Positions 3,368-39,355 of a DNA stretch of 64,000 bases are shown here, one piece after another. Numbering within the stretch: position 1 is the first letter of the stretch; each line of letters starts with the position of its first letter. Under the pieces are notes generated by a model. The model made no database searches, was not told the origin of the DNA, and saw nothing but the letters and a program-made list of their open reading frames with translations. The translations under genes were made by a program, and so were the position numbers. The DNA comes from Elusimicrobiota bacterium (GTDB lineage: Bacteria > Elusimicrobiota > Elusimicrobia > Elusimicrobiales > UBA9959). Location: NCBI GenBank assembly GCA_030651035.1, contig JAUSCK010000277.1, forward strand, positions 7,711 through 71,710, given 5' to 3'.

Positions 3368-3430
3368 GACTCCCCACTCCCGATTCTCGATTCCCGACTC
3401 CCGACTATCGACTTTTGATTTTCGATTTCC
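3368..3430. repeat. Nine tandem heptamers GAYTYYC (GRRRRTC on the minus strand)
   Basis: The run reads gactccc cactccc gattctc gattccc gactccc gactatc gactttt gattttc gatttcc. It fills the spacer between the 1070-aa gene stop (3430) and the PorV-like gene start (3356). Confidence 0.9.
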
Positions 3431-6400: not shown

Positions 6401-6630
6401 GCCGGGCTGGAGAGGACGTCGCCCTGCACCTGGAAAGTCCAGGCCGGCGTGAAGGGCGGGTAGGCCTGCTCGGAGGTATAACCGGTGCGCGCGGCGTCCC
6501 CCCTGAACATGGGCCAGTCCGCGGAAAGAACCGGCGAGTTCGGAACGCAAAGGGCAAAGAGCAAAAGCGTTGCCTGCCCGAAAATCTTCCGGGGCAGTTT
6601 CAGTATAAATGAAACGGCGTTTCTCTTCAT
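3430..6630 (-). CDS. Secreted PQQ/BamB-like beta-propeller, three FN3 domains and a T9SS-type C-terminal sorting domain
   Basis: Signal peptide (ATLLLFALCVPNSPVLSA), then DWPMFRGDAARTGYT and repeated propeller blades. Three FN3-like units follow (e.g. KIKLDWTASPGAGVTAYRIYRS). The C-terminus VYTYPNPARGDSLTFKFYV...IDVYNVAGEKV...SGVYVYRV...KKLAVIH matches the Por/T9SS CTD pattern. Start ATG 6630 (GGAGAGG upstream); the track start at 6642 is GTG. Confidence 0.8.
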   Translation of the reverse strand: MKRNAVSFILKLPRKIFGQATLLLFALCVPNSPVLSADWPMFRGDAARTGYTSEQAYPPFTPAWTFQVQGDVLSSPAVYDGKVFFGARSGSVYALDARTGELVWDYSTDGWVDASPAVSSAGVFIPSMDGRLYALDRLSGAVLWTAELGGTSVSSPLYLDGRVYAGVGLPRNSLKAFSAATGALLFEKRTALPGGQPVDSSPSSDGERVFFGANDGRAYAVDAETGAAAWPGAGYYQSIGGSYGMAALAVSSGSVYAVPGRDERRLFSLSAADGSQLGVSGPLEPQSGGEGWMGVTSPLLDGNNIYMGAGSSPHYLMALSRSGLEGVWASSPTLGNVSNLGLMSSPALANGVICAGTADGRLVFFSTAGAQLQQVLLSTYTFSSPAVANGMLYIGTHGGNLMAWRAARAASLSSPAPQEIISGTVPVRGYIRNPALSGYLLEYAAVSDPPAWTTVVSSAASAELQGALLADWDTSALSNGLYYLKLTAQETPPASTVNTALLELRVNHRPQPPASLSAADVPADSGNKIKLDWTASPGAGVTAYRIYRSTGADYALLAESLAPAVSYVDSTAPTGTVFYYRIRAFDGWVESADSPQASAASSNENPSSDGTDPSAVTDLSAGQGSQGGRVQLAWTAPGNDGAVGAASHYEIRYSTYAAFDWSGFPGAQLWKSSRTVSGAYGSAESEEVSGLFGGVTYYFSLKAWDFNGNDSALSNPATAMATLDLVAPGAPSGLAVSDAGGDHGGRLTLTWTLSPDDGAGAADVYGYRIFRSRAAGQYVSSAPYASSAAGETGYMDADAAVNLKYYYAVAAFDSTNNSTMTAEVHGISADNWRFFDAEQGGTVRLADGAEVDIPRNAVNQNDNILVTRLNPATYQPLFSAKANTQYRPTGVVYEIKFENPGTRLTSPAEVVLPYTDAEIAGLEEENLRLYKLSGSNWMLLDTSEVLAAANKVKAETDSFSVFRIMQYVPSGALLTANAVYTYPNPARGDSLTFKFYVADKASIEIDVYNVAGEKVAKLSKINCPAGLTSEITWDIRNIASGVYVYRVSAESASGGKVVTKKLAVIH

Positions 6631-6690
6631 ATGCCTCTCCACCGCCTTAAAAGCCTTCGCTCTTTACGCTTCCGGCCTATACGGTCTTCT

Positions 6691-33600: not shown

Positions 33601-34857
33601 GCCATTGGTCCAGCCGGCCATGGCCGGGGTGAAGTCGTGGAAGAACTGGAAGCCGGAGATCTGGGAGGCCGTGGTTTGTATGGCGTAGTTCCTTAGCGGC
33701 ACGTCGGAACCGCCTATCGAGGAGGCCACGGGCAGCTGGTCGCCTGTAGCCGAATCAAAGCTGCCGGCCACCCTGGCGTAGACCCGGCGCAGGGTTACGC
33801 CCTCTTCCCGCAGGTACAGGGGAATGGCGAAGTTGGTGGTTGAATTGGCCAGCGTGCCCTGGCCCAGGAAATAACGCGCGGTCTGGGTCTTCGAGGCGGA
33901 GTCCCTTGAGAACTCATAGGTCAGCACTACCTCGCCGGACAGCAGGTTCACCGGGGCCACGCCTATGGGCACGTTCAGCGTCTGCAGGGTATTGGCCAGG
34001 AAGCCGTCGGGCTGATCGGAGGAGGAGAGGTAGAGGAAAGAATAGGAATCCCCGAGGCCGTCATCCAGGTTCATGGAAGGCTCGGCCGCCCCGGTGCCTA
34101 TCTGGCAGCCCAGCGTGCCGTCGTTCGTGCCGTTCTGGTGATAGCCGCGCAGCTCGAACCACTGCTGCTGTATGGAAACCCCGGAGTCGGCTATCTCCGC
34201 GTTATACTGCATGAGCGCGGTGCCGGCGGCCTGTTGGCCGGTGAAAGCGGCAATACCCGAAGCGTAATCGGAATAGAGCGGGAAGCGGACCGTCTTCACC
34301 TGCGTGGGCGACTGGTCGTCATACTCGTAGGTGACGTAGAGCTTCATGGAATGCGAGTTGGAGGCGGGGCCGGTTATGGTCACGCCGGCCGTGAACTGCC
34401 TGCCGGCCGCAAGTTGGGCCAATTCCGCCTGCACCACGGCCGTGACGTCGGTCCTGGCGAAAAGCCTTATGGATTCCACCGTGGAGTCGGTATATTGGGC
34501 GCTCTGCAGCCGTATGGTGGAAGCGGTGGCCCCGGCGTTGAAATAGATCTCTATCGGGTTAGTGTCGGAGGCGGCCGTAAGGCCCTCGAATTCGAGCCAG
34601 GCGCTTTTTATGGCCTTGCCGTTCTCGGGAAGTTTGACCGTCCTGGTGGGAAAATTTAACTGTGTACCGGAGTTGACGTCCGCGCCGTAACGTCCGCCAA
34701 AATTGTACTCGACGGTCTTTATGCGGGTTTCCGCGGAAACGAAGGACAGAGGGTAAAGCAGGAAAGCCAGGAAAAGGAGGCGCCGGGCAAAAGAAAGGCC
34801 GCGCGGAACAGATCCGCGTTTCGCGCCTCCCTTTTCCTCAGCGTTCCCGAATAACAT
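6691..34857 (-). CDS. Giant secreted repeat protein (9,388 aa), putative surface fibre/adhesin
   Basis: Uninterrupted 28,167-nt ORF; ATG at 34857 lies 12 nt after the Rrf2 stop, with AGAGGA overlapping that stop. Sec-type N-terminus. About 50 hand-counted modules of about 100 aa (FYVxKDTxxP, xQxGDDxWR, YNVDFxD, NY[IV]SVRxxDxAGN). Also FN3-like modules, Trp-rich modules, lamin-tail-like segments and a C-terminal PQQ-like propeller. Confidence 0.9.
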   Translation of the reverse strand: MLFGNAEEKGGAKRGSVPRGLSFARRLLFLAFLLYPLSFVSAETRIKTVEYNFGGRYGADVNSGTQLNFPTRTVKLPENGKAIKSAWLEFEGLTAASDTNPIEIYFNAGATASTIRLQSAQYTDSTVESIRLFARTDVTAVVQAELAQLAAGRQFTAGVTITGPASNSHSMKLYVTYEYDDQSPTQVKTVRFPLYSDYASGIAAFTGQQAAGTALMQYNAEIADSGVSIQQQWFELRGYHQNGTNDGTLGCQIGTGAAEPSMNLDDGLGDSYSFLYLSSSDQPDGFLANTLQTLNVPIGVAPVNLLSGEVVLTYEFSRDSASKTQTARYFLGQGTLANSTTNFAIPLYLREEGVTLRRVYARVAGSFDSATGDQLPVASSIGGSDVPLRNYAIQTTASQISGFQFFHDFTPAMAGWTNGEVVRATVTAVTNAGGATGAPGMELIVTYDYTNDAAHTSSYEVLAGSDVTSALDGTYASVFGLYYPEVNGSKVMRSAWLYADIIQNDNIGDFTTTIDFDGNSAQTAAVRSITETTYMNRFYANTAQASAFPAFITANYSVSSGRGTLGGAARVNYGFTPVPKLVTGLQQYANGSALTAGTYTNARSISLEGVVASSMSADNLYFVLELKPSASSFDGLGLATGTLNSYSGTPLTVSLSSAGLTSGTVYKWRVRTLGDGGPGGWTAFTSPSFAVDYSSPPAPAMAAIAPAHNANLSITAFPLSWEAVADIDGSGLKNYELQVATSADYGTLSFSSAPLGALVQVSGLTQKYYYWRVRALDNAGNTGNWSAEKNFRVDLSTPTATSNIGTGDQAWRKANDGVYDVDFADLGESLIKQVEVKVTSGAAQTGTIFADWTLALAAVNADSYSGDWTLPAGVWNLMQSWTTNYVSVRVVDYSSQTYTLADAFKVFKDTVTPSYVNGEAGGDNTWRKAGRNYNVDFADPYSKLAGAKYEAWTGAARTGTQKKALTAIPSVSGASFGTDWSVDFASLEDSAANFISVEFYDVAGNTTTITDAFYIRKDTTPPSNINGEAGGDTAWRKAGRNYNVDFADAGSGLNGAKYAARTGANYTGTLKVASTTIAGVTGASFNADWSVDFASLEDSAANYVSIELYDVAGNTATITDAFYVRKDTTPPSNVNGESGGDNTWRKAGRNYNVDFADAGSGLNGAKYAARTGPNYTGALKVASTTIGGVAGASFNSDWSVDFDSLEDSAANYVSIELYDVAGNTATITDAFYVKKDTTPPSNINGETGGDAAWRKAGRNYNVDFADAGSGLNGAKYAARTGPNFTGSLKVASTTIAGVAGASFNSDWSVDFTSLEDSAANYVSIELYDVAGNTATITDAFYVKKDTTPPSNVNGEAGGDNTWRRTSRNYSVDFSDGGSLLAGAAYEAWTGGGKTGTQKKALTAIPGVSGASFNTDWAADFDALADEVLNYLSVEVYDVAGNTSTITDAFIVRKDTTAPRLADGQSGDDIWRNEPGTVYNVGFTDPVLLDHAQYSVWSAPGRTGTLRKDWTYINGSPINSSNYDTDWAVDFSALAEGQTTNYISVRAWDVAGSTAVFDDVFYAQKDVSLPYITDSQGGDDAWRSSSGTLYGVAFGDAGGSLLNSAEYKITTGAGQGGTLVLDWTALAAGIGAASYPGPWALPQAAWNGLPAGLSYISVRVTDYAGNSQAQSDVFYVKKDTQAPSATDLQSGDSAWRKTGSAVYDVDFADAGGSLLQKVQVKITTGPSQTGTLVTDWTDNLTNIDASSYSDPWSLAAGLFDLLQSGTNYVSVRVFDYAGSSSALTDVFYVKKDTSAPTVTDGQGGDDSWRRFGGTVYNVDFADPGAGLSGAKYEAWTGPGRTGTQKIALTAIPSVTGPLFADNWAVDFALLEQGTNYISVEAYDALASTATSADVFYVKKDNAAPVITDSQAGDGTWRNAAGTVYNVDFQDLNSKLATAQYRITSVTGQGGTVIKDWADIFTAQELSSYAADWQVAFADLTSGVTGYVSVRAYDTGGNLSQVSDVFYVLKDTIAPYIAISTPPGGYGAYENDPGGVFNVDIFDEGGSQLSYLQYSISSGSAFSGTLVKEWSNFALNVGATYYMQNWGVDFNALLKDPATNYVSLRGYDTAGNIIVSTDVFKIFRSSSAAPNLVDNQAGDDIWRNSSGTYYNVDFTTSSGFALDWFEAAAYSELGRLGDLLINWTTVRTNLGSSPYADDWPLPESFFNGMREGVNYISVRVYDSSSPANVSNVKDVFYVRKDTSPPSVPVLLSPVDNAGLNYAGVMFDWADSNGLQSGTSNYELILATSSDFTTITASSSPVVSQAYVPGLAQNPYYWKLRAKDHAGNFSAFASTYTFLVDLATPTITGLQADATHYLTANTGLYNVNFDDLGGSLLDKAQVRVTSGPAQTGTLLVDWTDAVTGMNSLSYSTDWALPASAWNALPSGPTGYVSVKVYDRAGNSFVQSDVFTVWKDTAPPYVSDNQAGDDNWRGSDPGAIYNVDFYDLESLLTTAQYRLYSGAGQTGALLKDWTTIVYLPGGTTQYSSAWGVDFGAALEGMTYVSVSLSDRAGLTSQAGDLFYVRKDTSAPVITDGQAGDGSWRSTPGTVYNVDFGDLSSGLTTVQYKVTRETGETGTLVKDWTNIVPDLAGQTSYAADWTLDFSALLETVTNYVSVRAYDQLGLGTTVQDVFYVRKDVTLPAITDDQLGDDAWRNADTASYSVSFADAGGSLLDRAQVKITSGPAQTGTLIADWTDRITDIEAATYAAPWQLGAALWNQLPEGKSYVSVRAYDNAANPRTVTDAFHVRKDATVPVINDVQSGDDSWRNTNSASYALSFSDTGGSLLASAEVKITTGPAQTGTLIADWTPVASAIDSSSYPGPWSLTAGLWDLLAAGTNYVSVRVSDNAGSAASLADAFYVRKDTQAPAINDTQGGDSVWRNSNAGSYAVGFTDPGGSLLSKFQVRASTVAGGAGPFSPDWTDNVTAINAASYPGPWTLVSGVWTLLQPGTNYISIRAYDNAGSPAVLADAFNVLKDTQTPSGSAVPPAYAGALAFNVAWSASDSGPSGVNYARLYYTLDTVSPYTWTQFGSTFNSSPIAFTAPSGGTAGFRIVAYDRAGNSDEADPPAAETAPEASTLVDLAAPSVTDNQAGDDAWPNAGGTSYNVDFSATGASDLDTAQYKVTSGPSQTGDVLKDWTTIAAGIGSPSYTANWQVDFAALKSSFNYVSARAWTVAGTTTTANDVFYVKKDTSPPAALDNQAGDDAWRRAAGTLYDVDFQDQLSLLANVQYSASSAEGSASGNLVAWTNIAYGISAENYTTDWEADFAALNSGGTNYISVRAYDLAGNMSVSTDIFHVHKDTVPAVITDNQAGDASWRTSNAGVYNVDFADAGGSLLSVIQVRASSGPAQTGTLAFDWSDLATGVNSASYADNWSLQAGNWNLLLPGTNYISVRAWDTAGTTVTLNDAFYVLKDQAGPGITDNQGGDDAWRAYAGTVYNVDFDDPLSGLASLQAKVHSEPGGAGLLLADWTQVTALAGAAHAADWALVPSLFSAMAEAQNYVTIRAYDTAGNYSTLADAFYVRKDATGPVITDNQGGDAVWRSTYNGVSYNVDFDDTLSLVSKFQVRASSGQGFTGNQALDWTDDLTGINASSYAGDWEFAPGVWALLLPGTNYISIRAYDVAGATSTLADAFYVLKDTAAPAAVSDLAAGTGSEGEVTLSWTASGDDASSGTALAYIVKLSSTGAINAGNFDSAGTYAQSWQPAASGLPENGSLTGLQADTLYYVAIKVQDKAGNLSAISNLPSGTSGADVTNPGTISLGAATGAFEGQVDLSWTAPGDNGVAIGTATAYLARYRTDQAITSLPLWDGAQVYAQSWQPLGAGEAEVKTISGLTPGTVYYWAVRAVDEVNNTGSLSNSPSASAQNAGAVGGIMQFGVSSSYDVPYFRKWAPPAFGSAQTGLETAAAANSQIRHAVVKASRLRNEKISGLLSSDGVLQIQRYDGVTDAWTNEWSVTEIGATNSAYRGFDIAYEQNSGRAMVLYSGVTAGQLKYNIWNGASWSGAVTLTSGTANASLWVRLEPKPGSDELMAAVLKATSLEIYAMRWTSTTWRDGTQIVASAGSSAKQRYDIAWEKTLGRCLVVYGGATGRADTKIWDGSAWSAYTATYFSFAGGNGVAQWIRLVSDPTSDRIGATAVDSGADWNAAIWDNGWTYAATENGAVDSNANQARSIDAAWESQSGKLVVVSAHGTASGLLYSSWTVSGGWGTTLAAAPTVTGWSNAVRSAVLESDPNTNSLILTAASGSNDLRSATWNGSAFSLYGSVHTAAISANAYMPFDFALDRHDTSAPTLADNQAGDDTWRNSNTGSYDVDANDTGGSHLKEIQVKVYTGAGQTGTLVLDWSAQVSTAVVDSYTDNWALAASTWTALREGVNYISVRSLDGALNATVNPAVDAFYVKKDTTAPSVPSLSSPADNAAVNTQPLLDWSDSSDGTSGVAGYTLQVSTSDDFTTLSFSDSPSVSQASASGLDSGKYYWRARALDAAGNYSVYSSTFAVFVDTAPPVVTDAQAGDDTWRRSSGTVYNVDFTDAGGSRLQNVRYAVYSSTGRQGAELVSFASGLIADSIGADSYPTDWKLSQAHWDLLPNGTSYVSAQAADAAGNTAVLEDVFYIRKDVTAPGVSDNQAGDDAWRKDSAAVYNVDFTDTGGSLIDRIQVKVTTGPAQTGTLISDWTSLASGVNSASYASDWSLGASTFTLMQSGTNYVSVRVFDYAGSTATLSDVFYVRKDTTAPSAPSLVAPADGGYSNSAGPLFDWSDSADALSGLSGYEIYIGTDEFFSVFSASAAASSSQHQAAGLVSAAYYWKARAADNAGNYSAWSSTYALVLDTAPPTMADNQAGDDAWRGSDPGAVYNVDFADAGGSLLDTVQYSAWTQPGLGGSNLVPWTNITAPPVNLAAYAADWAANFDLLGSGTSYISVRAADRAQGSAETQDVFYVRKDASPPSITDNQAGDDAWRNSNAGVYNVDFTDSGGSRLDKFQLKITTGPSQTGTVLLDWTDKAGAINSETYAEDWTLSFDQWTLLGPGTSYISVKAFDGAQNQATLSDAFYIRKDTSAPSITDNQGGDDAWRGSNSGAYNVDFADTGGSKLAYFQIKVTTGAAQTGTLVSDWLTVLSGLNAASYDAEWAVPEGVFTAMQSGLNYVSVRVFDNAGLTQSLNDAFYVKKSTSAPRVTDSQGGDDTWRSMAGTVYNVDFEDAGTSLLAAAQYKVTSLPAQAGTLLKDWTFIASNINASAYTTDWSVDFAALAENGSNYVSVRAWDVAGATTTAADVFYIRKDITLPGITDNQAGDDTWRNADTGVYNVDYTDAGGSLLDRIQVKATTGPSQTGTVLQDWLDVAAGINSSGYSANWSLPAGVWNALLEGPNYVSVRVYDNAGNTSALSDAFYVRKDTTVPSVPSLSTPADFAYVRTLGPTLDWTNSSDGTSGIYGYEALVSTHSGFSVIASSGAPAASQFTAALSMSATHYWKVRASDNAGNYSDYPSAYALVVDTIAPVITDGQAGEVSWRKADGGAVYNIDFADALSTLDTLQYSAWTGAGQTGANPVPWTNIAAGYSQQQYQGDWAVNFSLLSAGTNYISVRAWDLAGSTGTLADAFTVLKDTFAPSVTDSQAGDDTWRNSNSAVYNVDFADALSGLATAQYYISTDVSMGGSQVKNWTDIFSALNAPSYSSDWSLSAAAWSLLPEGTFYLTVRVFDTLAQDATSYDVFHVRKDVSAPGVTDNQADIAAAHSQADLSAINADFTDTGGSLLSYAQYTAWSDGYQTGGEVIPWTNIVTGINAASYTQDWSVNFAVLPNLAYSYITVRIYDNAGNSHIQDVFSLYKDASAPSIIDNQSGDDTWRASNTGVYNMDFQSQSGQNLDKFQVRASTCTSGCAYAPDWTDVVTALGAVDYTADWALPGAVFDALAAGRNYVSVRAHDLVPSSGTFDNAFYVQKDTSAPSITDGQTGDAAWRAAAGTVYNVDFLDSLSGLATAQYKVMSGAGQTGTLLKDWTNIASLTPGQASYSSDWAVDFAALSEVFTNYVSVRAYDALAQSAALDDAFTVLKDTTPPSAPALSSPADNALYSVSAVSFDWTDSSDLRSGTSGYALEVSTRADFQVVAYASAPAVSAASLPAVGDGVYYWRVRAADAAANYSAWAATRAFIVDVSSPEVINNQASPTAWYGSDPGAVFDVDFRDLSSGLTSVEYRITSLPAGGGGLYKDWTVISFTPGGLALYDAAWGVDFAAAKDGSNYVSVRAFDRVALSSAAADAFVIRKDTSAPSITDGQAGDDNWRNASGSLYNMDFADSGVGVSTAQYRVTSLPNGAGTVLKNWTDLFSGQAYASYTADWGVDFFALQETATNYVSVRAWDALGSSRTAEDAFYVLKDVTNPSVADNQADTDWLAADPGAAFDVDFADLGGAKLSKFQTRVTTGPAQTGTLVWEWTDRITAINATYYNMPWSLDFASMPEGPNYISVRAYDNGGNFAAQTDVFAVRKDTTPPAVTDLQAGDDTWRSANNGTYNVNFADTGGSLLSRFQVTASSATGLAGTPHFGWTDLVTGINAAAYDADWALTAELWALLPSGTSYISVRAWDNAGSSGTLADAFYIRKDTQTVTITDNQAGDTAWRSVNDGLYNVDASASGASLVDRLEVRSSTMPGGAGPFTSDWTAAVTGINSASYTAEWALPGTVFDAMLSAATNYISVRVYNQAQNSASQSDVFYVRKDTVPAVITNNIAGGDQTWRGAAGAAYDLDFTDSGGSLLEKFQVKITTGASQTGTLVTDWADNITAINAPAYSADWALFAGAWDLLQEGTNYVSLRVYDEAGNITFSTDAFRVFKDTTVPSVTDLQAGDDAWRNANNGLYNVDFTDTGGSRLERFQVRASTNAGLIGPFSPDWTDNVAGINLPSYTSDWALASGVWDLLREGTNYISVRVYDGAGNLFTYGSQPFYVLKDTTAPSYVNGAAGGDLNWRNSSGTLHNVDVQDAGGSKLSVYQFSVTTGAARTGIMPVDWTPIASGLNSASYAADWALPQAAWDLLPEGTNYISVRAWDIAGTTGTLVDAFRIFKDTTAPAASSAQAGEFDWRGLNTGLYDADFTDTGGALLAKFQVRASTTPGAGPYSPDWTDNTLGLNAAAYPADWPLASGVWDALVDSVTNYISLRVFDNAGSSFTLTDAFRILKDTTPALITDNQAGDDNWRSAAGTLYNADFSDYGSRVSSAAYAAWTQPAAGGSQSLGWTQIFTSTGLLSYTADWSADFNNAAQGFNYISVRAWDKAGNLTELADAFYLKKDTAAPSMTDLQAGDTTWHRLNPGDVFNVDFADGGIGLSSAAYEAWTGPGKTGANVVASSQIFSGAPITSYTADWGLTDAAFTLLAAGTNYISVTAWDGLDQSSAAVDLFYILKDTVAPSGITALSAVTPPAAADEGKLNVYWTAVGDNALAGSASYYMIRYHTDAINDGNFDAVSVFVSTLTPKAAGQGEGIIIAGLTPSVTYYAAVKAVDKAGNTGALSNLTSTYAGLDLTAPETVSDLSSLQGDFQGQVNLYWTAPGEGVAGVAGAGTAQAYIVRYATFAVNSGNFSAPNVSSYTQTWTPLAYGQAEARVLDGLSPGATYSIAIKAVDEAGNTAPISNVIVGTAAPAGAADGMLVYGDNSANLRYQTWVPPNWSAEADSGVTGSVIRWSVLKSVPLVANQKLAGLLYSDNSLKVLKWNGSAWSDATPAPAPAPGGSVTRRFDMAAENLSGRIMTAYYNGTTGAVTYAVWSASASAWAAGPASLPLTSLTGTVNWVRLRSMPGTDRILLTALDANSDISAAVWNGSVWIDNVNLTTAGSIATKESFDAAWETQTGDALVLWGTGTGTSYRKWYSASTWGAPTAGPALAATAGANWIRLCSDPSTNRIGLTSLDGDIDWNMAVWRPAGAEAWSALPTEDTAMSGTGYRMTDCAWESQSGQLLAVAVDDAGATDNKFDWITWSAGTWSPASPSVTATNNNTVFAGSITWLSLIPDPNTDNITALGVDGPANDVRSTVWNGSAWAAAGASANALHEQSGSGHIYEFAAADFDRHDIVPPTAADNQAGDDNWRNASAYYNVDATDSGGSRLARVQTKVHSAAGLGGTLLQDWTDQVTGINLDSYTTDWPLAAGTFNILPQGQSYVSVRALDNVGNISNSAVDAFYVRKDTTVPTITNNLAAGFDPAWRSADAGNIYDVNFADSGGAQISSITYSAWTGAAQTGANAVDNAVISSGTGVGNSYSADWGMNFGLLAHGTNYITVRVWDWASSSATLVDAFKVLKDTQAPADITALAASPGPVRGSVKLEWPAPGDDGALNDNAQGGYLVRAATYNITAALFDSAGVYAQAWVPQGAGVTESKVLYGFEAGKTYYFAVKTYDKAGSTSAISNVPSSLPQTANVYINEVYPSGAAAVDDWVELFNNTASTFNLTGWTLVYNQGTIDLPGPEVTVWTGADVDRSSVNAHFVSTISFNLNGAQSYHLLLKDPSGVLIDRVQWPYLEAGQSFARIEDGNADFFEADPTPTRGYANAISTGLVKINEAAYGTLSSEFVELFNTGADTPTLSGYSLRNSNAVKFTFTRKIYAGNYSLLVFSSISDDQLSWQSAFGTGGLNAAGDYLSLENAVGQTVDRVTWQSGTSYSLYNYKAAQVSAAAYAPANAPYSIGRRPSEGEDIGSDSTDFVSAAVAATPMSRNNGAGAGAANTLAYPAEGQKLPRLFPLRLTLGADSSGGTADNIALIRTGGAADNYSPHLYRLGDIGFDLASLAAQSTAQAGVSFADQDGHALVHNAVYRLLLNSDSVSDSAPQLALAAVTYDASVHTVSASTTAPARVNQGASDDLALFYVSNNSPSGYNSVELASASLRFYDADLNPLDTAKASALFDAVYIARDSASGLPGIYEPAIDTDTAAYVGNGEISLDAFGTQVITAANPGAAANSVAAASTATFFAVVMMKADAASQAVNVFRLRFRADTELTVRDGPSDFAQLLPAAAEIESSSVTAIAPSSAPAGTSWPYTPPEPTSVEAPVDYYTNEGSSTVYSPATDGVLRALNGDGTFKWAFTPSPASPIRNGPTVPWPSGAPQVYFANDNGDIYRVQDNGPGVSQVWKRGLGSAVRSSVMVIGERLYLGTMDSKIYCLNVSDGLNCADWTFSSSVNSPIVGTLSIDDRTDVNRGWIGLDNGKMVTFRTGDGYVDTSFQTGAAIKSSPYVDAGYGGANNNLYLASTDGRLYARVAANLESIPTGWPALGYVDLFSPLYSSPFIWPLGGTKYIFVGDDAGRLHKINAVTGAEAWTFQANGQIRSSPVLVPGGYVGLAEDYVYFGCDDSYIYAVNANTGQLRDGWPVATGGPVRADPVADIENRVLITGSGDGKTYVLSIGP
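6694..7800 (-). other. C-terminal PQQ/BamB-like beta-propeller of the giant protein
   Basis: Repeated blade pattern: DGVLRALNGDGTFKWAF, GDIYRVQD, DSKIYCLNVSDG, DGRLYARV, AGRLHKINAVTGAEAWTF, SYIYAVNANTGQLRDGW. Confidence 0.65.
8800..9620 (-). other. Two lamin-tail-domain-like segments
   Basis: VYINEVYPSGAAAVDDWVELFNNTASTFNLTGWTL and VKINEAAYGTLSSEFVELFNTGADTPTLSGYSL match the LTD hallmark I-N-E ... [DE]-[WF]-V-E-L-[FY]-N ... L-[ST]-G-[WY]. Confidence 0.6.
10650..12640 (-). other. FN3 pair plus Trp-rich module 2 of about 420 aa
   Basis: ILKDTVAPSGITALSAV and two FN3 units are followed by GAADGMLVYGDNSANLRYQTW...KWNGSAWSD...VWNGSVWID...TVWNGSAWAA, ending at FDRHDIVPP. This is a paralogue of module 1. 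Confidence 0.55.
16174..16185 (-). repeat. Homopolymer of 12 G on the coding strand (C12 on plus) inside the giant ORF
   Basis: The plus strand reads cagcccccccccccccggc. The tract encodes Gly6225-Gly6228 (LPAGGGGLYKDW) and is the longest homopolymer I found in the window. Confidence 0.9.
21900..23845 (-). other. FN3 pair plus Trp-rich module 1 of about 420 aa
   Basis: VLKDTAAPAAVSDLAAGTGSEGEVTLSWTASGDD and a second FN3 are followed by GGIMQFGVSSSYDVPYFRKW...IWNGASWSG...IWDGSAWS...ATWNGSAFS, ending at LDRHDTSAP. The periodic W-x-G-[ST]-x-W pattern suggests a propeller or beta-sandwich array. Confidence 0.55.
27950..28870 (-). other. Low-GC compositional island inside the giant ORF
   Basis: Hand counts: line 28501-28560 has 23/60 G+C and line 28621-28680 has 25/60, against 39/60 for a typical flanking line (29401-29460). 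The segment covers about three modules and the frame is preserved. Confidence 0.75.
30500..32140 (-). repeat. Five tandem 327-nt (109-aa) units, the inner three near-identical
   Basis: The linker sequence recurs with a 327-nt period (e.g. 30811 vs 31138). Protein units run DAFYV[RK]KDTTPPSN[IV]NGE.GGD..WRKAGRNYNVDFADAGSGLNGAKYAARTG...NYVSIELYDVAGNTATIT. The outer units share EAWTG..TGTQKKALTAIP. Confidence 0.85.
34732..34857 (-). other. Predicted Sec signal peptide of the giant protein (aa 1-42)
   Basis: MLFGNAEEKGGAKRGSVPRGLSFARRLLFLAFLLYPLSFVSA/ET has a long basic n-region, a hydrophobic core and small residues at -3/-1. Confidence 0.6.
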
Positions 34858-34869
34858 AAACTTTTTCCT

Positions 34870-35316
34870 CTACTCTTCCGCCGCGCCGCCGCCGCTTGTC
34901 GGCCTCGGCGCTTTTTTCTTTTCCCCGTCCTTATGCCGCTCTTCCTCTTTCATCATCTCGATGATATCCTGCACGCTGAGGCCCACCAGCCAGTGGTTCA
35001 CCTCTTCGCGCAGGGTTTCGTACAGCTTTATGGAGATCTGTTTCCGGTCGGCTTTGGGCGCGCCGTTGAAAGTGAAGGACTCCATCAGTTCCCAGACGCT
35101 GATATCGTCCAGTTCTTTGTTCAGGCGGTAGCCTTTGCCTTTCTGAGATTCCACGAAACCCGCGTGCACCAGCGCCTGCAGCACCTTGTTGCAGTAGGCC
35201 GCAGGCAGGCCCTGGAATTTGGAGATCTGCCCTACTTGGTTCCAGGCGCCGCCATTGTTCTGCCCGAGGTAATGCAGGCAGGCCAGGCCATAAGCTAAGG
35301 TGCGGTTCATCTTCAT
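34870..35316 (-). CDS. Rrf2-family transcriptional regulator without a Cys cluster
   Basis: 148-aa winged-helix N-terminus (RTLAYGLACLHYLGQ...ISKFQGLPAAYCNKVLQALVHAGFVESQKGKGYRL). It lacks the three C-terminal Cys ligands of IscR/NsrR. Its stop lies 12 nt before the giant gene ATG. Confidence 0.8.
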   Translation of the reverse strand: MKMNRTLAYGLACLHYLGQNNGGAWNQVGQISKFQGLPAAYCNKVLQALVHAGFVESQKGKGYRLNKELDDISVWELMESFTFNGAPKADRKQISIKLYETLREEVNHWLVGLSVQDIIEMMKEEERHKDGEKKKAPRPTSGGGAAEE

Positions 35317-35414: not shown

Positions 35415-35442
35415 AGTATAGCAGGCGTATTTCCATAGTCAA
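35415..35442 (-). promoter_or_regulatory. Sigma70-like promoter for Rrf2 and the giant gene
   Basis: The minus strand reads TTGACT-N16-TATACT. The -35 box overlaps the rSAM stop codon (35439-35441). Confidence 0.5.
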
Positions 35443-36536
35443 GGGGTAATCTCGCGACTCTTGGATACATAAATCTGGCTCATTATTTTCGCCATTTCAC
35501 AGGCCGGTTTATTGGGAGCGAACAGGTTTCCTTCCTCAATAAGGCTCAAGCCGGGACAGCGGCTGCAGAAGTCTATATCCGCGCAGGAGGCGCAGCCTTT
35601 AAGGTCCCGCATTCCTGCGCTGCGCCATTTTTTAAGCCAGGCCGAGTTTTTCCAGATGTCGGAGAAGCTTTGCCTGGTCAGATCCCCCAGTTTTACCGGA
35701 ACCTGCAGGCAGGAATAAAGCCCGCCCTCCGGGCCGACAGCGCAGACATTGCGGCCGGCGCCGCATAGAAAATCCAGGGTCGGGGAGTCGGGAGTCGAGA
35801 GTCGGGGGTCGAGCGCAGCGAGACTGTGCTTGTCGGGAATCGGGGAGCGGGGATTAAGAGGCGCGGAGAGAAGTTTTACTGCTTTTGACAGCTGCGGGCC
35901 GGAGAGGCGCAGGGGGAGGGCGGAGGCGTTGCCGTCGTTGGTTGAGGTTATAGTCGGGTCGAAAGAGATATCAAAGCCTTCTGTTTCAGCGAGTTTCCTG
36001 AGCCAGCCGGCCTGGCCCAGGTTTTTTTTCATCAGCGGGGTTTTAAATTTCACTTTTATGCCGGCCGCCTTAAGCAGGCGGGCCGCCGCAAGGGTGTGTT
36101 TAGAAGAATTTTTCACGCCGGTAACGGAATCATGCAGGGCGGGTTTACCATAAAAACTGAGCTCAAAGGCGGAAACCCCGGCTTTCTTAAATTCAGCGGC
36201 AAGTCCGGGTGTCAGCCCCAGGCCAGTGGAAAAAACACGGACGTCGAAGTTGAGCTTTTTTGCGTGGCGGCAGAGCTCGGCCAGGTCGGGACGCAGCAGG
36301 GGTTCCCCCCCGGTATAAACCAGGTAAAGCGCGCCGGCTCCCGCCAGCTGCGCGAGGATATTCTTCCATTGGGCGGTTGTCAGTTCAAGGCCGGCGGGGG
36401 CGCGGCCGCGGGTCTCCGGCAGGTAACAATGCAGGCAGGCGAGGGGGCAGCGGCGCGTGAGCTCAATAGTGACCGCCGCCGGGATATTCCGCTCAAGCGT
36501 AAGCGTGTTCAGTTTAGCCGCAATTGCGAATTTCAT
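35439..36536 (-). CDS. Radical SAM / SPASM-domain peptide maturase
   Basis: 365 aa with the CPLACLHC (CxxxCxxC) cluster, GGEPLL, and a C-terminal Cys-rich SPASM region (FLCGAGRNVCAV...CLQ...GCASCADIDFCSRCPG). Confidence 0.85.
   Translation of the reverse strand: MKFAIAAKLNTLTLERNIPAAVTIELTRRCPLACLHCYLPETRGRAPAGLELTTAQWKNILAQLAGAGALYLVYTGGEPLLRPDLAELCRHAKKLNFDVRVFSTGLGLTPGLAAEFKKAGVSAFELSFYGKPALHDSVTGVKNSSKHTLAAARLLKAAGIKVKFKTPLMKKNLGQAGWLRKLAETEGFDISFDPTITSTNDGNASALPLRLSGPQLSKAVKLLSAPLNPRSPIPDKHSLAALDPRLSTPDSPTLDFLCGAGRNVCAVGPEGGLYSCLQVPVKLGDLTRQSFSDIWKNSAWLKKWRSAGMRDLKGCASCADIDFCSRCPGLSLIEEGNLFAPNKPACEMAKIMSQIYVSKSREITP
35777..35870 (+). repeat. GRRRGTC word array embedded in frame in the rSAM gene
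   Basis: The plus strand reads GGGTC GGGGAGTC GGGAGTC GAGAGTC GGGGGTC ... GTC GGGAATC GGGGAGC GGGGATT AAGAGG. This is homologous to the minus-strand reading of 3368-3430 (GTC GGGAATC GAGAATC GGGAGTG GGGAGTC AAGAGG). It encodes LNPRSPIPDKHSLAALDPRLSTPDSPTLD between the rSAM core and SPASM. Confidence 0.75.
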
Positions 36537-36563
36537 ATCCGGATTTCCCGAATGGGGTGCGAA

Positions 36564-36905
36564 TTACACGAACAACAGAGCAAGCGAGCGGCGGATCTTT
36601 GAGTAGATATAGCCGCAAAGGCCGCCGGCAAGGGGGTTTCGGCTCAGGACTTTGCCGCGGATATTTTCCCATGGCACCAGGTGGGGTTCCAGGCGGCCGG
36701 CGTCATCCGCCAGCCAGGCGCCTTCCGGCCCGGTTTTTACCACCCGGTGAAGCAATATGCGGCCCTCAAGATCGTATACAGCGCAATCGCCTGGGGAAAG
36801 GATAAGGGATGAGGGATGAGGGATGAGGGGATGCACGAGGGCAATCTCGCCGGGTTTAAATACCGGGAGCATGCTTGACCCCTCAAGACGGAAAGCGGCG
36901 GGCAT
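36564..36905 (-). CDS. S26B-type (SipW/Sec11-like) signal-peptidase-fold protein, candidate leader peptidase
   Basis: 113 aa. EGSSMLPVFKPGE (GxSMxP Ser box) and ILLHRVVK (His in place of Lys, as in archaeal/ER-type S26B). The ATG lies 2 nt after the precursor stop. Confidence 0.6.
   Translation of the reverse strand: MPAAFRLEGSSMLPVFKPGEIALVHPLIPHPSSLILSPGDCAVYDLEGRILLHRVVKTGPEGAWLADDAGRLEPHLVPWENIRGKVLSRNPLAGGLCGYIYSKIRRSLALLFV
36797..36831 (+). repeat. Five tandem heptamers RARGGAT inside the peptidase gene
   Basis: aaaggat aagggat gagggat gagggat gagggga, encoding the loop PLIPHPSSLILSP in frame. Confidence 0.85.
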
Positions 36906-36907
36906 AT

Positions 36908-37045
36908 TCAGGAAAATTTTTTAAGCGTCTTACAGGCCAGCTGGCTGATGGGCCCGGTCTGGCACTTGCCGCAGGCCAGCGCGGCGGTCTCAAAGACCTT
37001 TTCGGTCTTTATTTTAGGTTTTTCGTATGTCTTCTTTTTTTTCAT
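36908..37045 (-). CDS. 45-aa candidate RiPP precursor peptide (not in the ORF track)
   Basis: My translation is MKKKKTYEKPKIKTEKVFETAALACGKCQTGPISQLACKTLKKFS. GGGGGAG sits 7 nt upstream of the ATG. The ORF begins 14 nt after the PqqD stop, and its stop is 2 nt before the peptidase ATG. It has a PqqA-like KP leader, an A-L-A site and three Cys. Confidence 0.7.
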   Translation of the reverse strand: MKKKKTYEKPKIKTEKVFETAALACGKCQTGPISQLACKTLKKFS

Positions 37046-37059
37046 AGATCACTCCCCCG

Positions 37060-37323
37060 TCAGGTCTTTTTAGCAAGCAGGCCGGCTTTCAAAAGCTCGG
37101 CAATAAAGCTGTTCATATCCGCGCGGGCGGTTTCTTCGTCCACTTCGAATTCGGCCGTAATTGCCGAGACCAGGGCGCTTTCCTTTTTACCGGAGGCAAG
37201 GCCTTCCCAGATAAGGGCGGCGGGGCTGTTCAGCTCGTGCAACTCGGCCCGGGAGGCGTCCACTATGAACATTTCCCCGGCAATGCGCCGGTAAGCCAGG
37301 TCCTTTTTAATATTGGTCTTCAT
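37060..37323 (-). CDS. PqqD-family peptide chaperone (RRE)
   Basis: 87 aa. IAGEMFIVDASRAELHELNSPAALIWEGL...ITAEFEVDEETARADMNSFIAELLKAGLL fits the PqqD pattern. Confidence 0.8.
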   Translation of the reverse strand: MKTNIKKDLAYRRIAGEMFIVDASRAELHELNSPAALIWEGLASGKKESALVSAITAEFEVDEETARADMNSFIAELLKAGLLAKKT

Positions 37324-37355
37324 TAGTATTTATCCGAAAAGTCAGCGGGCTTTTT

Positions 37356-37763
37356 TCATTGAAACAGCGTTTTTACCCAATCAAGGTAACGGCCAACATC
37401 TTTTGTGATGTCCGACGCTTCCCGTTCGGTAAATTCCCTGGAATCATATTCCACTATGCTCTTTTGCCCAAGGATACGGGTAAGCCGGGCGGACTGTACG
37501 CTGACCTTCTCGTGCTTTATGTGAATACACAGCAGCTCTACCGCCTCATAGTGGCTTTCTCCGGCTGAGCGCACCTTGGCTTTAAATCCCAGCGCCGCGT
37601 CGGTAGCGGATATAGCGCAGTGGACTCCCGCCAGGCCCGCCGAATTCCACCGTCTTTGTCTGCAGGACTCCAGCATGGTCTGGTAGAATTCCTCAGCCTT
37701 CTTCAGATAGGATTTTGCCTCGGCTTCGCTCACATGCCTGGTGCGGTGTTTTTTAGGGCTCAT
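37356..37763 (-). CDS. HEPN-domain protein (toxin of an MNT/HEPN pair)
   Basis: Helical protein of about 135 aa with an R-x5-H motif (RSAGESH). It overlaps the upstream MNT gene by 11 nt. The track start at 37781 is TTG; ATG 37763 is preferred. Confidence 0.7.
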   Translation of the reverse strand: MSPKKHRTRHVSEAEAKSYLKKAEEFYQTMLESCRQRRWNSAGLAGVHCAISATDAALGFKAKVRSAGESHYEAVELLCIHIKHEKVSVQSARLTRILGQKSIVEYDSREFTEREASDITKDVGRYLDWVKTLFQ

Positions 37764-38376
37764 GGGCCAGCAGCTCCTCAAAATATTTACCGGAAATTAC
37801 GCGGCCTTCCTTGATCACATTTTGGATCAATTTATCTTTTTTATCGAACCTGGCGACAAAGTCCCGGCGACGAATAACATGCGGGGAAAGCATCATTCCG
37901 AATTTGGCCAGAAATTCCCCGCTTTTATCCTGTATGCCAGCGGTGATCTTCCGGACATCGAGGGAATCCTCAAGCACGAGCATAATATCCAGGTCGCTGC
38001 CCTGTCTGCCTTCCCCGCGCGCCACACTGCCGAAGACGATCAGGGACACGACGCCTTTATTCGGCAGCGCCTTGCGCAGCTCCTCTATCATCGCGCCAAA
38101 CAGCCCCCCCTCGCTTTCGAAAAGGGGAGACAGCATATTTTTAACCACATAACGCGTTCTGTTGAGCGAGAATAAATATGAAGCCCCCGCGGTCTTCCTG
38201 TGGACGATGCCCGCGGCATAGAGTTCCTGCAGGGCCTGCTGCGCGGCCCTGGGGCTCAAGTCCGCCTTCCTGGCAATTTCCCTGCCCGTGAATTCCGTCC
38301 CGCGGTAAAGGATGCGGAGAATAGTCACCTTTGACTTCTGCCCCAGAAAATCCTCCAGCAGATGCTTTGTGTCCAT
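37753..38376 (-). CDS. Winged-helix plus minimal nucleotidyltransferase (MNT) protein
   Basis: N-terminal wHTH (KVTILRILYRGTEFTGREIARKADLSPRAAQQALQEL) followed by the NTase motif LIVFGSVARGEGRQGSDLDIMLVL (GS...DxD). Confidence 0.8.
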   Translation of the reverse strand: MDTKHLLEDFLGQKSKVTILRILYRGTEFTGREIARKADLSPRAAQQALQELYAAGIVHRKTAGASYLFSLNRTRYVVKNMLSPLFESEGGLFGAMIEELRKALPNKGVVSLIVFGSVARGEGRQGSDLDIMLVLEDSLDVRKITAGIQDKSGEFLAKFGMMLSPHVIRRRDFVARFDKKDKLIQNVIKEGRVISGKYFEELLAHEP

Positions 38377-38377
38377 A

Positions 38378-38438
38378 TGTATACTTAAGTAGCCATTTGT
38401 ATGCTAATAGTATACACCCCCCGGCGCTCCCCTGTCAA
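38378..38438 (-). promoter_or_regulatory. Sigma70-like promoter with TGTATAC operator boxes upstream of MNT/HEPN
   Basis: The minus strand reads TTGACA (38438-38433)-N18-TATACT (38414-38409). Inverted repeat TGTATAC (38378-38384) / GTATACA (38410-38416), plus a TGTATGC half-site at 38398-38404. Confidence 0.55.
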
Positions 38439-38451
38439 CCCCGCATCCTCT

Positions 38452-38476
38452 TTGCGCATCTTGCGCTTCTTTGCGG
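38452..38476 (-). repeat. Post-stop 25-mer, second copy
   Basis: The minus strand reads CCGCAAAGAAGCGCAAGATGCGCAA, a 24/25 match to 775-799. It starts 9 nt after the HprK-like stop; the first copy starts 3 nt after the ABC ATPase stop. Confidence 0.85.
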
Positions 38477-38485
38477 CTAATCCCA

Positions 38486-39355
38486 CTAACTAATAAGGCT
38501 CAGGAAATCAGCGTTATCCTTTGAGAATTCCAACCGGGCGAACTTCGCTTTTGAGATCAACTGGACGGCATTCCCCATTATCAAAGTCGAGGTCCCCGGG
38601 TTTTTATCAAAATTCACCAGGCAGCGGAGCAGCAGTTTAAGCGCTTCACCCTTTGTACAGGCGCGCACTTTGTTGAGCTTCGCCTTGTTAAGCAGGTAGA
38701 TCCCGCCCAGGGGCCAGGAGCCCTGCCTGCCATCGGCGCGCATCTCCCCCCAGAAAGGGGAGCCGTAAACCCTGAAGCGGCCCTTTTCAAAGCGGACGAG
38801 GTTTATTTCGTCGCTTATTACCTCGGCCCCGCACTTTTTCCGAAGACGGCCAAAGTGCGGGGCAAGCCCCTGGGCCGCTAATTTCGCCAGGGTGGACTTG
38901 CCGGCGCCGGATTTGCCTAAAAAAAGGTATGCTTTGCCGTTCTTAACCAGCCCGGCCGAATGCTGCATGAAGCCGCCGGAACGGATGAGCAAAAAACTTA
39001 TAAAAGAACGTAAAAAAGCGTCAAGGCACTGTTCATTGGGGGCGGCTTTCAGTGTTCCGGCCCCGGCACGCATATCCAGAACCGCCTCAAAATCCCCGCG
39101 CTTAATTTCCAGAGAGCGTCCGTCAAACAAAACCTCCGGCTTGAACGGGTTTTGCCTGCCGGGGGCCTCAGAAACATCCAGCCTGAAGCCCGCGCCGACC
39201 GCCGACCCGAATTTACTATACCTGTGCTTTAAAATTGAAATGATACTTATCGCGTCCGATTTCAGGCTTAACCTGAAACCGGCTATTTCAAGCCCCACCC
39301 GGCCTGAGAAAGCGGCCAGGGTCTTTCCACTGTTTTTCAAAGGGAATTTTATCAT
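38486..39355 (-). CDS. HprK-related kinase-like P-loop protein
   Basis: 289 aa. HSAGLVKNGKAYLFLGKSGAGKSTLAKLA resembles the HPr kinase C-terminal P-loop. No HPr kinase N-terminal domain is present. Confidence 0.6.
   Translation of the reverse strand: MIKFPLKNSGKTLAAFSGRVGLEIAGFRLSLKSDAISIISILKHRYSKFGSAVGAGFRLDVSEAPGRQNPFKPEVLFDGRSLEIKRGDFEAVLDMRAGAGTLKAAPNEQCLDAFLRSFISFLLIRSGGFMQHSAGLVKNGKAYLFLGKSGAGKSTLAKLAAQGLAPHFGRLRKKCGAEVISDEINLVRFEKGRFRVYGSPFWGEMRADGRQGSWPLGGIYLLNKAKLNKVRACTKGEALKLLLRCLVNFDKNPGTSTLIMGNAVQLISKAKFARLEFSKDNADFLSLIS

Follow-up and report, generated by a model that had tools for sequence, protein, structure and literature searches.

The 64,000-nucleotide stretch of Elusimicrobiota DNA analyzed here (assembly GCA_030651035.1, contig JAUSCK010000277.1; hereafter the window) carries a compact gene cassette built around a conserved 45-aa precursor peptide. 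The cassette combines this precursor with a discrete PqqD-type recognition element, a radical S-adenosylmethionine (rSAM)/SPASM enzyme, a small S26B-type serine peptidase, and a ScmC-family P-loop protein. We interpret it as encoding a RiPP-type pathway (RiPP: ribosomally made, post-translationally modified peptide) that follows the logic of Linear Polyphosphorylated Peptides (LPP), adds an rSAM/SPASM step, and is tied functionally to a giant cell-surface protein; we put the probability of this interpretation at about 0.6. The narrower proposition, that a maturation pathway dependent on a RiPP recognition element (RRE) acts on the 45-aa product, is one that we hold with high confidence.

The precursor, MKKKKTYEKPKIKTEKVFETAALACGKCQTGPISQLACKTLKKFS, has a leader with the elements Y7xxP10xI12 and F18-E19-T20-(A-A-L-A24), followed by a cationic core that contains Cys25, Cys28, and Cys38, G31-P32, Q35, and a C-terminal Ser45. 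Searched against 5.8 billion proteins, the precursor has 133 clusters of homologues (E 1e-13 to 1e-20), which come from Elusimicrobiota metagenome-assembled genomes and are nearly all exactly 45 aa long. Across 121 aligned precursors, Y7, P10, F18, A22-L-A-C25, K27, C28, G31, Q35, C38, and S45 are invariant; a C-terminal Ser closes 121/121 of them, and 118/121 have exactly three Cys. The F-E-T20 residues are invariant in Elusimicrobia. Pairwise comparison of 16 gene copies gave 0.12, 0.13, and 0.43 differences per site at codon positions 1, 2, and 3, the pattern of a translated gene under purifying selection. Judged from its sequence, this open reading frame (ORF) is far beyond chance expectation and is a genuine gene. 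It is present as a single copy within the window, and its product has no match to any Pfam, NCBIfam, or PDB family. Where rSAM identity between loci is 36-66%, precursor identity is 71-82%; thus, the peptide is more constrained than its presumed maturase.

An earlier, sequence-only reading of this DNA had singled out the small ORF as an unannotated precursor. The ORFs it named were all found where it had placed them, and the 45-aa translation is exactly as quoted. The peptide is precursor-like, being conserved and carrying a leader of the lasso/LPP type (YxxPx[ILV]), and the proposed test of conservation in syntenic clusters gave a clear result, since the ORF was found at every syntenic Elusimicrobia locus examined. 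It is not unannotated: GenBank already lists the exact peptide as a “hypothetical protein” (MDO8806174.1, locus tag Q7R35_17295), so it had been overlooked solely because of the 60-aa cut-off used in that reading.

The cassette is conserved as a unit. Loci were gathered via the precursor peptide and via an rSAM profile scan of GTDB species genomes, and are given below as L numbers where they must be told apart. The gene order ScmC-PqqD-peptide-peptidase-rSAM-Rrf2-giant occurs in about 20 Elusimicrobia species, and the order ScmC-PqqD-rSAM-peptide-peptidase in three loci (L005/L021, L022). Sister cassettes in Acidobacteriota and Deltaproteobacteria are arranged PqqD-rSAM-precursor-ScmC-peptidase; their rSAM enzymes are more distant relatives (27-32% identity), and none of their proteins reaches an NCBIfam cutoff. 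The sister precursors follow the pattern ...PYExPx[ILV]..LRPEEAVLG-xCK[TI]....GP....C....C...GS and have in common the YxxPxh leader, the [AV]-L-[AG] block, the Lys after the first Cys, the GP pair, and three Cys. Their C-terminal Ser is present in 13/13 loci, always together with a ScmC-like gene.

The PqqD-like protein proved to be a discrete RRE of the lasso B1 type, in agreement with its earlier assignment as an RRE. It matches Pfam PqqD at 57 bits, above the gathering (GA) threshold, and its top NCBIfam match is the lasso PqqD chaperone. Its top PDB sequence matches are the lasso RREs TbiB1 and TfuB1, plus 9x8z_B and 9x90_B, 2026 entries annotated as PqqD-family/lasso chaperones. In the rSAM enzyme, the CxxxCxxC motif lies at residues 30-37 and leaves no room for an RRE domain of its own; seven SPASM Cys are invariant. 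The motifs read earlier from the letters (GSSMLP and LLHRVV in the peptidase, CPLACLHC, GGEPLL, and the 7-Cys SPASM set in the rSAM enzyme) are all present. The closest solved relatives of this enzyme are PqqE (PDB 6c8v, 4e-28, full length), SkfB, SuiB, and CteB. A grouping with non-peptide maturases had been raised as a possible objection; the closest structures are peptide modifiers, not anaerobic sulfatase-maturating enzymes. Every NCBIfam equivalog falls below its cutoff on this protein, including PqqE (123 bits vs. 381) and AlbA, SkfB, StsB, and PapB (45-52 bits vs. 300-850), and the suggested check of NCBIfam for SCIFF or ranthipeptide precursors returned no match to a SCIFF or other precursor model. 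By analogy with the peptide-modifying relatives, we propose tentatively that the enzyme modifies the precursor core via Cys-derived thioethers.

The peptidase assignment was borne out by structure prediction. The AlphaFold2 (AF2) model (predicted local distance difference test, pLDDT, 88.3) retrieves LexA, UmuD', lambda cI, SipA, SpsB, and LepB in Foldseek, and the relatives have an invariant Ser11, His53, and Asp67/68 with no conserved Lys. Together, the S24/S26 fold and this catalytic set identify the protein as S26B-type. The G-[ST]-S-M-x-P, H-R-[VL], and [GD]-D boxes are kept in all peptidase relatives. Its top NCBIfam match is sigpep_I_arch (TIGR02228), at 22.4 bits against a cutoff of 51.85, and a Pfam Peptidase_S24 match also lies below cutoff. 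The protein differs from membrane-anchored S26B signal peptidases: it scores below the TIGR02228 cutoff, has its predicted catalytic Ser at residue 11, and has no N-terminal transmembrane segment. Because it has no such anchor, we take it to be cytoplasmic. The GenBank model (Q7R35_17290, 102 aa) begins at Met12 and drops AFRLEGSS, with the predicted catalytic Ser11; we prefer the 113-aa ORF because it is conserved in over 100 homologues. In all loci and in both gene orders, the peptidase start lies within 5 nt of the precursor stop or overlaps it. The peptidase probably removes the precursor leader.

Two cleavage sites can be considered. The A-L-A24 site fits the -3/-1 rule of S26 peptidases, and since every lineage, Acidobacteriota among them, keeps the [AV]-L-[AG] block, cleavage after Ala24 is plausible. 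The rival site, F-E-T20, would follow the experimental precedent of LPP. In Acidobacteriota, a homologous peptidase is present and FET is replaced by P-E-E, a poor fit to an S26 -1 pocket. Ala24 is slightly favored over Thr20. At L022, both the peptide and the peptidase depart from the family pattern: the precursor core differs (…AALGCKKCTSGNPIVQARCSAQLSSS), and in the peptidase (4366-4794) a Cys replaces the nucleophilic Ser (GGCMRP), which may be a Ser-to-Cys nucleophile swap.

The P-loop protein had been called HprK-like, and its fold agrees. Its AF2 model (pLDDT 88.8) matches phosphoenolpyruvate carboxykinases (PEPCK) at E 1e-6 and the catalytic domain of HprK/P at E 4e-4 in Foldseek. His132, GxSGxGK[ST]T (147-155), and Asp182 are invariant from Elusimicrobia to Proteobacteria, a His/Walker A/Asp layout that we take to be that of the HprK/P active site. 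All homologues carry the precomputed Pfam annotation PF27840 ScmC, and weak NCBIfam matches to ScmC and HprK_rel_A/B all lie below cutoff. A ScmC-like gene adjoins the cassette in nearly all loci. The role given earlier to HprK homologues in lasso clusters is documented: in paeninodin-type clusters, HPr-kinase homologues add phosphate to the precursor's C-terminal Ser (PMC8498205). The combination of an invariant C-terminal Ser with a ScmC-like gene matches this precedent. By this analogy, ScmC may phosphorylate Ser45, a proposal to which we give slightly less than even odds.

One departure from the earlier picture of the locus concerns the giant gene that follows the cassette. A link between the two was absent from the sequence-only reading, and the literature appears to contain no description of it. 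The giant protein of the window has a signal peptide, a conserved N-terminal module of ~800 aa, about 70 Ig/fn3-like repeats, LTD domains, and a C-terminal BamB/PQQ-like beta-propeller. Nearly all Elusimicrobia loci have a giant ORF after the cassette, and about half of these giants share the N-terminal 800 aa of the window protein at 41-70% identity. Within 6.5 kb, 25/33 cassette loci have an ORF of at least 1300 aa, compared with 3/35 other rSAM loci.

Gene fusions provide a second line of evidence. In acidobacterial cassettes, the gene after ScmC encodes the same S26-like peptidase. There it may stand alone and be followed by a giant gene (L034, L035, L037, L031), and in eight acidobacterial species it is fused in frame to the giant. 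The fused proteins consist of the peptidase, an Arg-rich segment, a signal-anchor with an AxA-like ending, and at least 1,400 residues of DUF11/CARDB repeats, with Pfam Peptidase_S24 and DUF11 found in one uninterrupted translation. An exhaustive profile search with the peptidase alignment, which covered 811 representative clusters, also found the fusions P0449 (6,457 aa) and P0466 (792 aa, contig-truncated). In these, an N-terminal peptidase domain and a signal-like segment precede a part orthologous to the window giant (33-35% identical; E 4e-84 and 3e-98). The sequence there reads ...LHA|ATRIKTVEYNFGG, where the window giant has VSA|ETRIKTVEYNFGG. A 54-aa precursor variant, ...IYSKPALKTEKVFETAALACGKCIAGNPIFTSNCTVLPRFS, is encoded 48 nt upstream of P0466 at L088. 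The peptidase is thus fused to giants in at least 10 cases. These independent fusions to two unrelated giant families make a Rosetta-stone argument for joint action of cassette and giant. In the fused proteins, the peptidase domain lies on the Arg-rich, cytoplasmic side of the signal-anchor, a position that fits a leader-peptidase role and speaks against its being the giant's own signal peptidase. The linkers of P0449 (L087 201-19574) and P0466 (L088 390-2766) translate repeat-element-like sequence (VIASDRRERGNLN..., LTLTLSHKGRGN), and another copy of this element is present immediately upstream of the L087 gene (1-200). This suggests that these two fusions arose when a repetitive element inserted into the intergenic spacer. 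Overall, we regard functional coupling of the cassette to the giant surface protein as about as probable as its absence.

These observations can be assembled into a pathway. Conservation and the codon pattern indicate that the 45-aa precursor is translated. The discrete PqqD-type RRE would bind the Y7-x-x-P10-x-I12 leader, as its homology to TbiB1/TfuB1/LppB-type RREs predicts, and would hand the peptide over to the rSAM/SPASM enzyme, itself lacking an RRE domain. That enzyme would modify the Cys25/Cys28/Cys38 core, most likely by forming Cys-derived thioether cross-links. ScmC would phosphorylate a Ser, most likely Ser45, as in paeninodin-type lasso peptides. The peptidase would remove the leader after A-L-A24 or F-E-T20, leaving a 21- or 25-residue cationic product. 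Finally, maturation would be coupled to the giant adhesin-like protein encoded downstream, to which the peptidase is fused via a signal-anchor elsewhere. Since the same peptidase domain is fused to the giant N terminus in other genomes, the peptide probably acts with or on the giant surface protein rather than as a free, fast-evolving antibiotic.

A more specific version of this scheme is, in our estimate, rather doubtful. It holds that a cross-linked, possibly phosphorylated, conserved peptide is an obligate accessory of the adhesin, its maturation being physically coupled to adhesin export. The leader peptidase would be tethered to the membrane by a C-terminal helix or as the cytoplasmic N-terminal domain of the giant that cleavage of the signal-anchor leaves behind; one peptidase would then be deposited per exported adhesin molecule. 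The peptide itself could then serve as an anchor, cap, matrix partner, or secretion/assembly signal of the adhesin.

It is useful to contrast the cassette with LPP, the closest known system, which occurs in Bacillota and is composed of LppA/LppB/LppK/LppS/LppN/LppD (PMC13381572, Nat Commun, May 2026). In LPP, the leader consensus is YxxPxVLxHQxIxFETxxS; LppS, a cytoplasmic leader peptidase with catalytic residues S29/H68/D93, cuts after the Thr of FET only with the RRE, and mutations at F-3, E-2, and T-1 impair cleavage; LppK polyphosphorylates Ser3 of the core (PMC13381572). According to its authors, signal-peptidase-I (SpI)-like peptidases were previously unseen in RiPP pathways, and the paper does not mention radical SAM enzymes (PMC13381572). 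Both systems combine a discrete RRE of the lasso type with an archaeal-type SpI-like peptidase with Ser/His/Asp, and the P-loop protein of the cassette, HprK-like in fold, may be the counterpart of LppK; both leaders have YxxPx[VIL] and then F-E-T; and both lie within cell-surface biogenesis loci, capsule loci for LPP and giant adhesin genes here. Given this trio and the Y7xxP10xI12...F18-E19-T20 leader, we conclude that the cassette probably reuses the LPP components and leader logic. There are also differences. The cassette adds an rSAM/SPASM enzyme, whereas the LPP product is linear and has no cross-linking enzyme. Its kinase-like protein belongs to Pfam ScmC and is likened to LppK by its fold and its His/Walker A/Asp motifs. 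LppN and LppD are lacking, no LppN-type NTP transferase or MsbA-like exporter is found in the cassette, and the sole nucleotidyltransferase of the window is an MntA-like antitoxin. The spacing from Y to T is 2 residues shorter than in LPP, and HQ is absent. The core contains Cys and is near-invariant, whereas LPP C-termini are hypervariable. Finally, the cassette belongs to Elusimicrobiota and Acidobacteriota rather than to Bacillota.

The sequence-only reading could name no cluster type that combines these parts. This was half true, since an RRE, an HprK-like protein, and an SpI-like peptidase are already published together as LPP. The combination of an HprK-like protein with PqqD and rSAM/SPASM proteins also has a name, the “SynChlorMet cassette” of NCBIfam/Pfam (TIGR04248-TIGR04251: ScmC, ScmD, ScmE, ScmF), which likewise encodes a ScmC-family P-loop protein, a PqqD-like protein, and PqqE-like rSAM/SPASM enzymes. 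ScmC is the top NCBIfam match of the window P-loop protein, and its homologues carry PF27840. Among systems defined by bioinformatics alone, this one comes closest to the cassette. All four models nevertheless score far below cutoff on the window proteins (ScmC/ScmD/ScmE/ScmF: 26.9/125, 21.3/100, 77.4/400, and 61.6/400 bits, score/cutoff). The cassette has one rSAM enzyme where SynChlorMet has two, and it has an S26B-type peptidase and an identified precursor. To our knowledge, the SynChlorMet precursor has never been identified, as the TIGRFAMs description states.

Other known systems resemble the cassette in part. Paeninodin-type lasso clusters (kinases PadeK/ThcoK) share the lasso-type RRE, the YxxP leader, the HPr-kinase-like enzyme, and the C-terminal Ser, but neither a lasso cyclase (Asn-synthetase-like) nor a B2 transglutaminase-type peptidase occurs in the cassette or in 20+ related loci. 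Any cross-linking here would come from the rSAM enzyme. Sactipeptide/ranthipeptide and PQQ maturases (SkfB, CteB, PapB, PqqE) share the rSAM domain, the full SPASM domain, and a Cys-containing core, and the trans-acting PqqD partner recalls PqqE/PqqD. Sacti- and ranthipeptide synthases, however, usually have a fused N-terminal RRE, which the cassette enzyme does not, and neither they nor the PQQ systems have a kinase or an S26-type peptidase. With regard to PQQ, the PqqA E-x3-Y motif is not in the peptide, and no PqqB/C is found in the neighborhood. SipW-TasA/TapA of B. subtilis and the SipA-pilus system of S. pyogenes also dedicate an S26-family protein to an adjoining large surface protein. 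The cassette peptidase differs from these in being cytoplasmic, N-terminal to the signal-anchor in fusions, and tied to an RRE and a precursor. Literature searches returned no description of the cassette. We judge it to be a RiPP pathway akin to LPP and SynChlorMet that includes an rSAM step, has a hyper-conserved core, and is associated with giant surface proteins across phyla.

Alternatively, the product could be a free, secreted, 21-aa cationic peptide, thioether-linked, C-terminally phosphorylated, and cut after Ala24, which acts as an antimicrobial or a signal with the giant as a bystander. A core that is cationic and has three Cys would suit this role. So would the fit of A-L-A to the S26 -3/-1 rule, [AV]-L-[AG] being the most widely conserved block, and the ABC transporter pair directly upstream of PqqD in L001. 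We consider it unlikely, because the core hardly varies across >120 clusters and exceeds its enzymes in conservation, which is not typical of antimicrobial RiPPs, and no transporter or immunity gene lies within the window. Moreover, a bystander giant is difficult to reconcile with fusions to two unrelated giant families and with the 25/33 vs. 3/35 enrichment. Another alternative is that the S26-like peptidase primarily processes or assembles the giant surface protein, in the manner of SipW or SipA, the peptide being trimmed by another protease or left untrimmed. The at least 10 fusions agree with this idea, as does the second-best structural match, S. pyogenes SipA, a homologue of signal peptidases without which pili do not polymerize; in addition, SipW homologues are the ancestors of LppS (PMC13381572). 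It is improbable for three reasons. No signal or transmembrane segment precedes the peptidase domain, which lies on the Arg-rich cytoplasmic side in the fusions, where an exported cleavage site would be out of reach; in either gene order, the precursor stop is coupled to the peptidase start at a distance of no more than 5 nt; and LppS is, by experiment, a cytoplasmic, RRE-dependent leader peptidase (PMC13381572).

The remaining alternatives concern the peptide itself. It could be the precursor of an intracellular cofactor or of a redox/metal-binding effector, in the manner of PQQ or mycofactocin, with an rSAM enzyme like PqqE or MftC. Indeed, this enzyme best matches PqqE (6c8v, full length) and models of the MftC/AhbD/NirJ type, the PqqD is discrete, peptide conservation is very high, as for PqqA and MftA, there is a CxxC motif and no exporter, and both the giant and the next gene encode PQQ-like/BamB-like beta-propellers. 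Yet the PQQ and mycofactocin models remain far below cutoff, there are no homologues of PqqB/C/F or MftD/E/F, and conservation spans the whole 45 aa rather than a brief motif from which a cofactor would form. PQQ binding is not usual for BamB-like propellers, DUF11 repeats take their place in the acidobacterial giants, and a putative kinase and leader peptidase of LPP type point to a peptide product, so we give this possibility little weight. Less credible still, and hardly to be expected, is that the 45-aa product is no enzyme substrate at all, but a Lys-rich, Cys-containing metal-binding or regulatory mini-protein, the rSAM enzyme having some other substrate. Its whole sequence is conserved as in a folded mini-protein, CxxC plus the third Cys could bind metal, and it has no family match in any library. 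Such a protein would leave unexplained a canonical RRE-binding YxxPx[ILV] motif beside a lasso-type RRE, an rSAM enzyme without an RRE of its own, a leader that is common to otherwise different cores in other phyla, and a variant core behind the same leader in L088 and L022.

Several points weigh against the LPP-like, giant-coupled pathway that we prefer. Thioether formation, phosphorylation, and the cleavage site are all assigned by analogy. ScmC is a fold-level relative of HprK only, below every NCBIfam cutoff and with no Pfam Hpr_kinase_C match. The LPP phospho-site Ser3 is missing, the +3 position after FET being an invariant Leu. At L001 the cassette has no adjacent ScmC and the peptide still ends in Ser, and two distant ScmC-linked precursors, L038 and L052 (proteobacterial, with a shared leader), are not Ser-terminated. 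A near-invariant core is atypical for antimicrobial RiPPs, and no exporter or immunity gene occurs in the window cassette. As for the giant, part of the cassette-giant synteny in Elusimicrobia could reflect shared ancestry, the P0449 and P0466 fusions might be recent accidents, given their repeat-element-like linkers, and the L023 cassette has no giant gene.

If the preferred pathway is correct, it may be relevant in several ways. The LPP pathway would gain its first relative with a radical SAM enzyme, and the known range of signal-peptidase-like leader peptidases and HprK-like peptide kinases would grow by three or more phyla. The cassette would also supply the missing precursor type for ScmC/PqqD/rSAM “SynChlorMet-like” cassettes, so far bioinformatic entities only. 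A peptide under stronger constraint than its biosynthetic enzymes would point to a partner-specific rather than an antibiotic role. The recurrent genetic and gene-fusion link would connect a RiPP pathway to surface proteins of giant size, from 1,500 to more than 9,000 residues, and would offer a handle on how the cell surface is built or regulated in the poorly studied Elusimicrobiota and Acidobacteriota. Should the export-coupled version hold, it would define a new functional category, the “adhesin-associated RiPP,” in Elusimicrobiota, Acidobacteriota, and some Proteobacteria.

Features of the cassette and its immediate surroundings, by position in the window
Feature	Position	Strand	Length and basis
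Giant secreted protein	6691..34857	-	9388 aa; ORF, Pfam domains
Rrf2-family transcription regulator	34870..35316	-	148 aa; Pfam Rrf2 61.6 bits
Radical SAM/SPASM enzyme, putative core-modifying maturase	35439..36536	-	365 aa; Pfam Radical_SAM + SPASM
S26B-type (archaeal signal-peptidase-I-like) serine peptidase, small, cytoplasmic; putative leader peptidase	36564..36905	-	113 aa
Precursor peptide gene	36908..37045	-	45 aa; homologues, codon pattern, GenBank entry
Shine-Dalgarno-like GGGGGAG	37052..37058	-	read from sequence
PqqD-type RiPP recognition element, discrete	37060..37323	-	87 aa; Pfam PqqD
HEPN protein	37356..37781	-	141 aa
wHTH-nucleotidyltransferase	37753..38376	-	207 aa; overlaps HEPN gene; Pfam NTP_transf_2
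ScmC-family protein, PEPCK/HprK-fold P-loop, putative peptide Ser kinase	38486..39355	-	289 aa

In ORF calls for the 64-kb window, every cassette gene lies on the minus strand. Reading the spacings from the sequence reproduced the earlier values of 14 nt between the PqqD stop and the precursor ATG and of 2 nt between the precursor stop and the peptidase ATG. The GGGGGAG box of the precursor is also there, with a spacing to the ATG of 6 nt rather than the 7 nt given before. The kinase-like gene, described as nearby, is part of the cassette, and its apparent distance is due to a HEPN/nucleotidyltransferase pair (37356-38376) inserted in this genome. ScmC and PqqD genes overlap by 4 nt in most relatives, and we therefore treat this pair as an insertion outside the system. 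The HEPN and winged helix-turn-helix (wHTH)-nucleotidyltransferase genes form a HepT/MntA-like toxin-antitoxin pair, in which the MntA antitoxin match is weak; the pair comes with a strong promoter-like site of its own (38438-38409, 11/12 match), and about 20 related loci lack the pair. In most Elusimicrobia loci (10+ syntenic loci), an Rrf2 gene separates the cassette from the giant gene, and a promoter-like site overlaps the end of the rSAM gene.

A few further features of these loci may be recorded. In the window ScmC protein, a ~13-residue insertion, LAPHFGRLRKKCG, separates the Walker A helix from the conserved SDE motif (residues ~161-175); it is not in relatives, and its model confidence is low (pLDDT 66-71). 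In L001, the most divergent Elusimicrobia locus, the place of ScmC immediately upstream of PqqD is taken by an ABC_tran + ABC2_membrane pair (6806-9622). Close by, on the opposite strand, is an NTP_transf_5 gene, of a family that occurs in lasso/LPP-type clusters. Two proteobacterial cassettes with precursors that do not end in Ser have repeat proteins upstream (L038 58-4071, 1,337 aa; L040 26-4885, 1,619 aa) with weak similarity to the Ig-like repeats of the window giant. The giant gene also contains long ORFs on the plus strand (e.g., 30388-33696, 1,102 aa), which are antisense artifacts of its GC-rich repeats. The gene after the giant gene (3430-6642, minus strand) encodes a 1,070-aa PQQ_2-propeller protein with a Por_Secre_tail, a C-terminal sorting domain of the type IX secretion system (T9SS). 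Directly upstream of ScmC, two tandem overlapping minus-strand genes (39452-42001 and 41998-44301) encode large polytopic membrane proteins fused to spermidine-synthase-like domains. The first of them matches NF037959 MFS_SpdSyn above cutoff, and in related loci such as L003 these genes are not at the same position.

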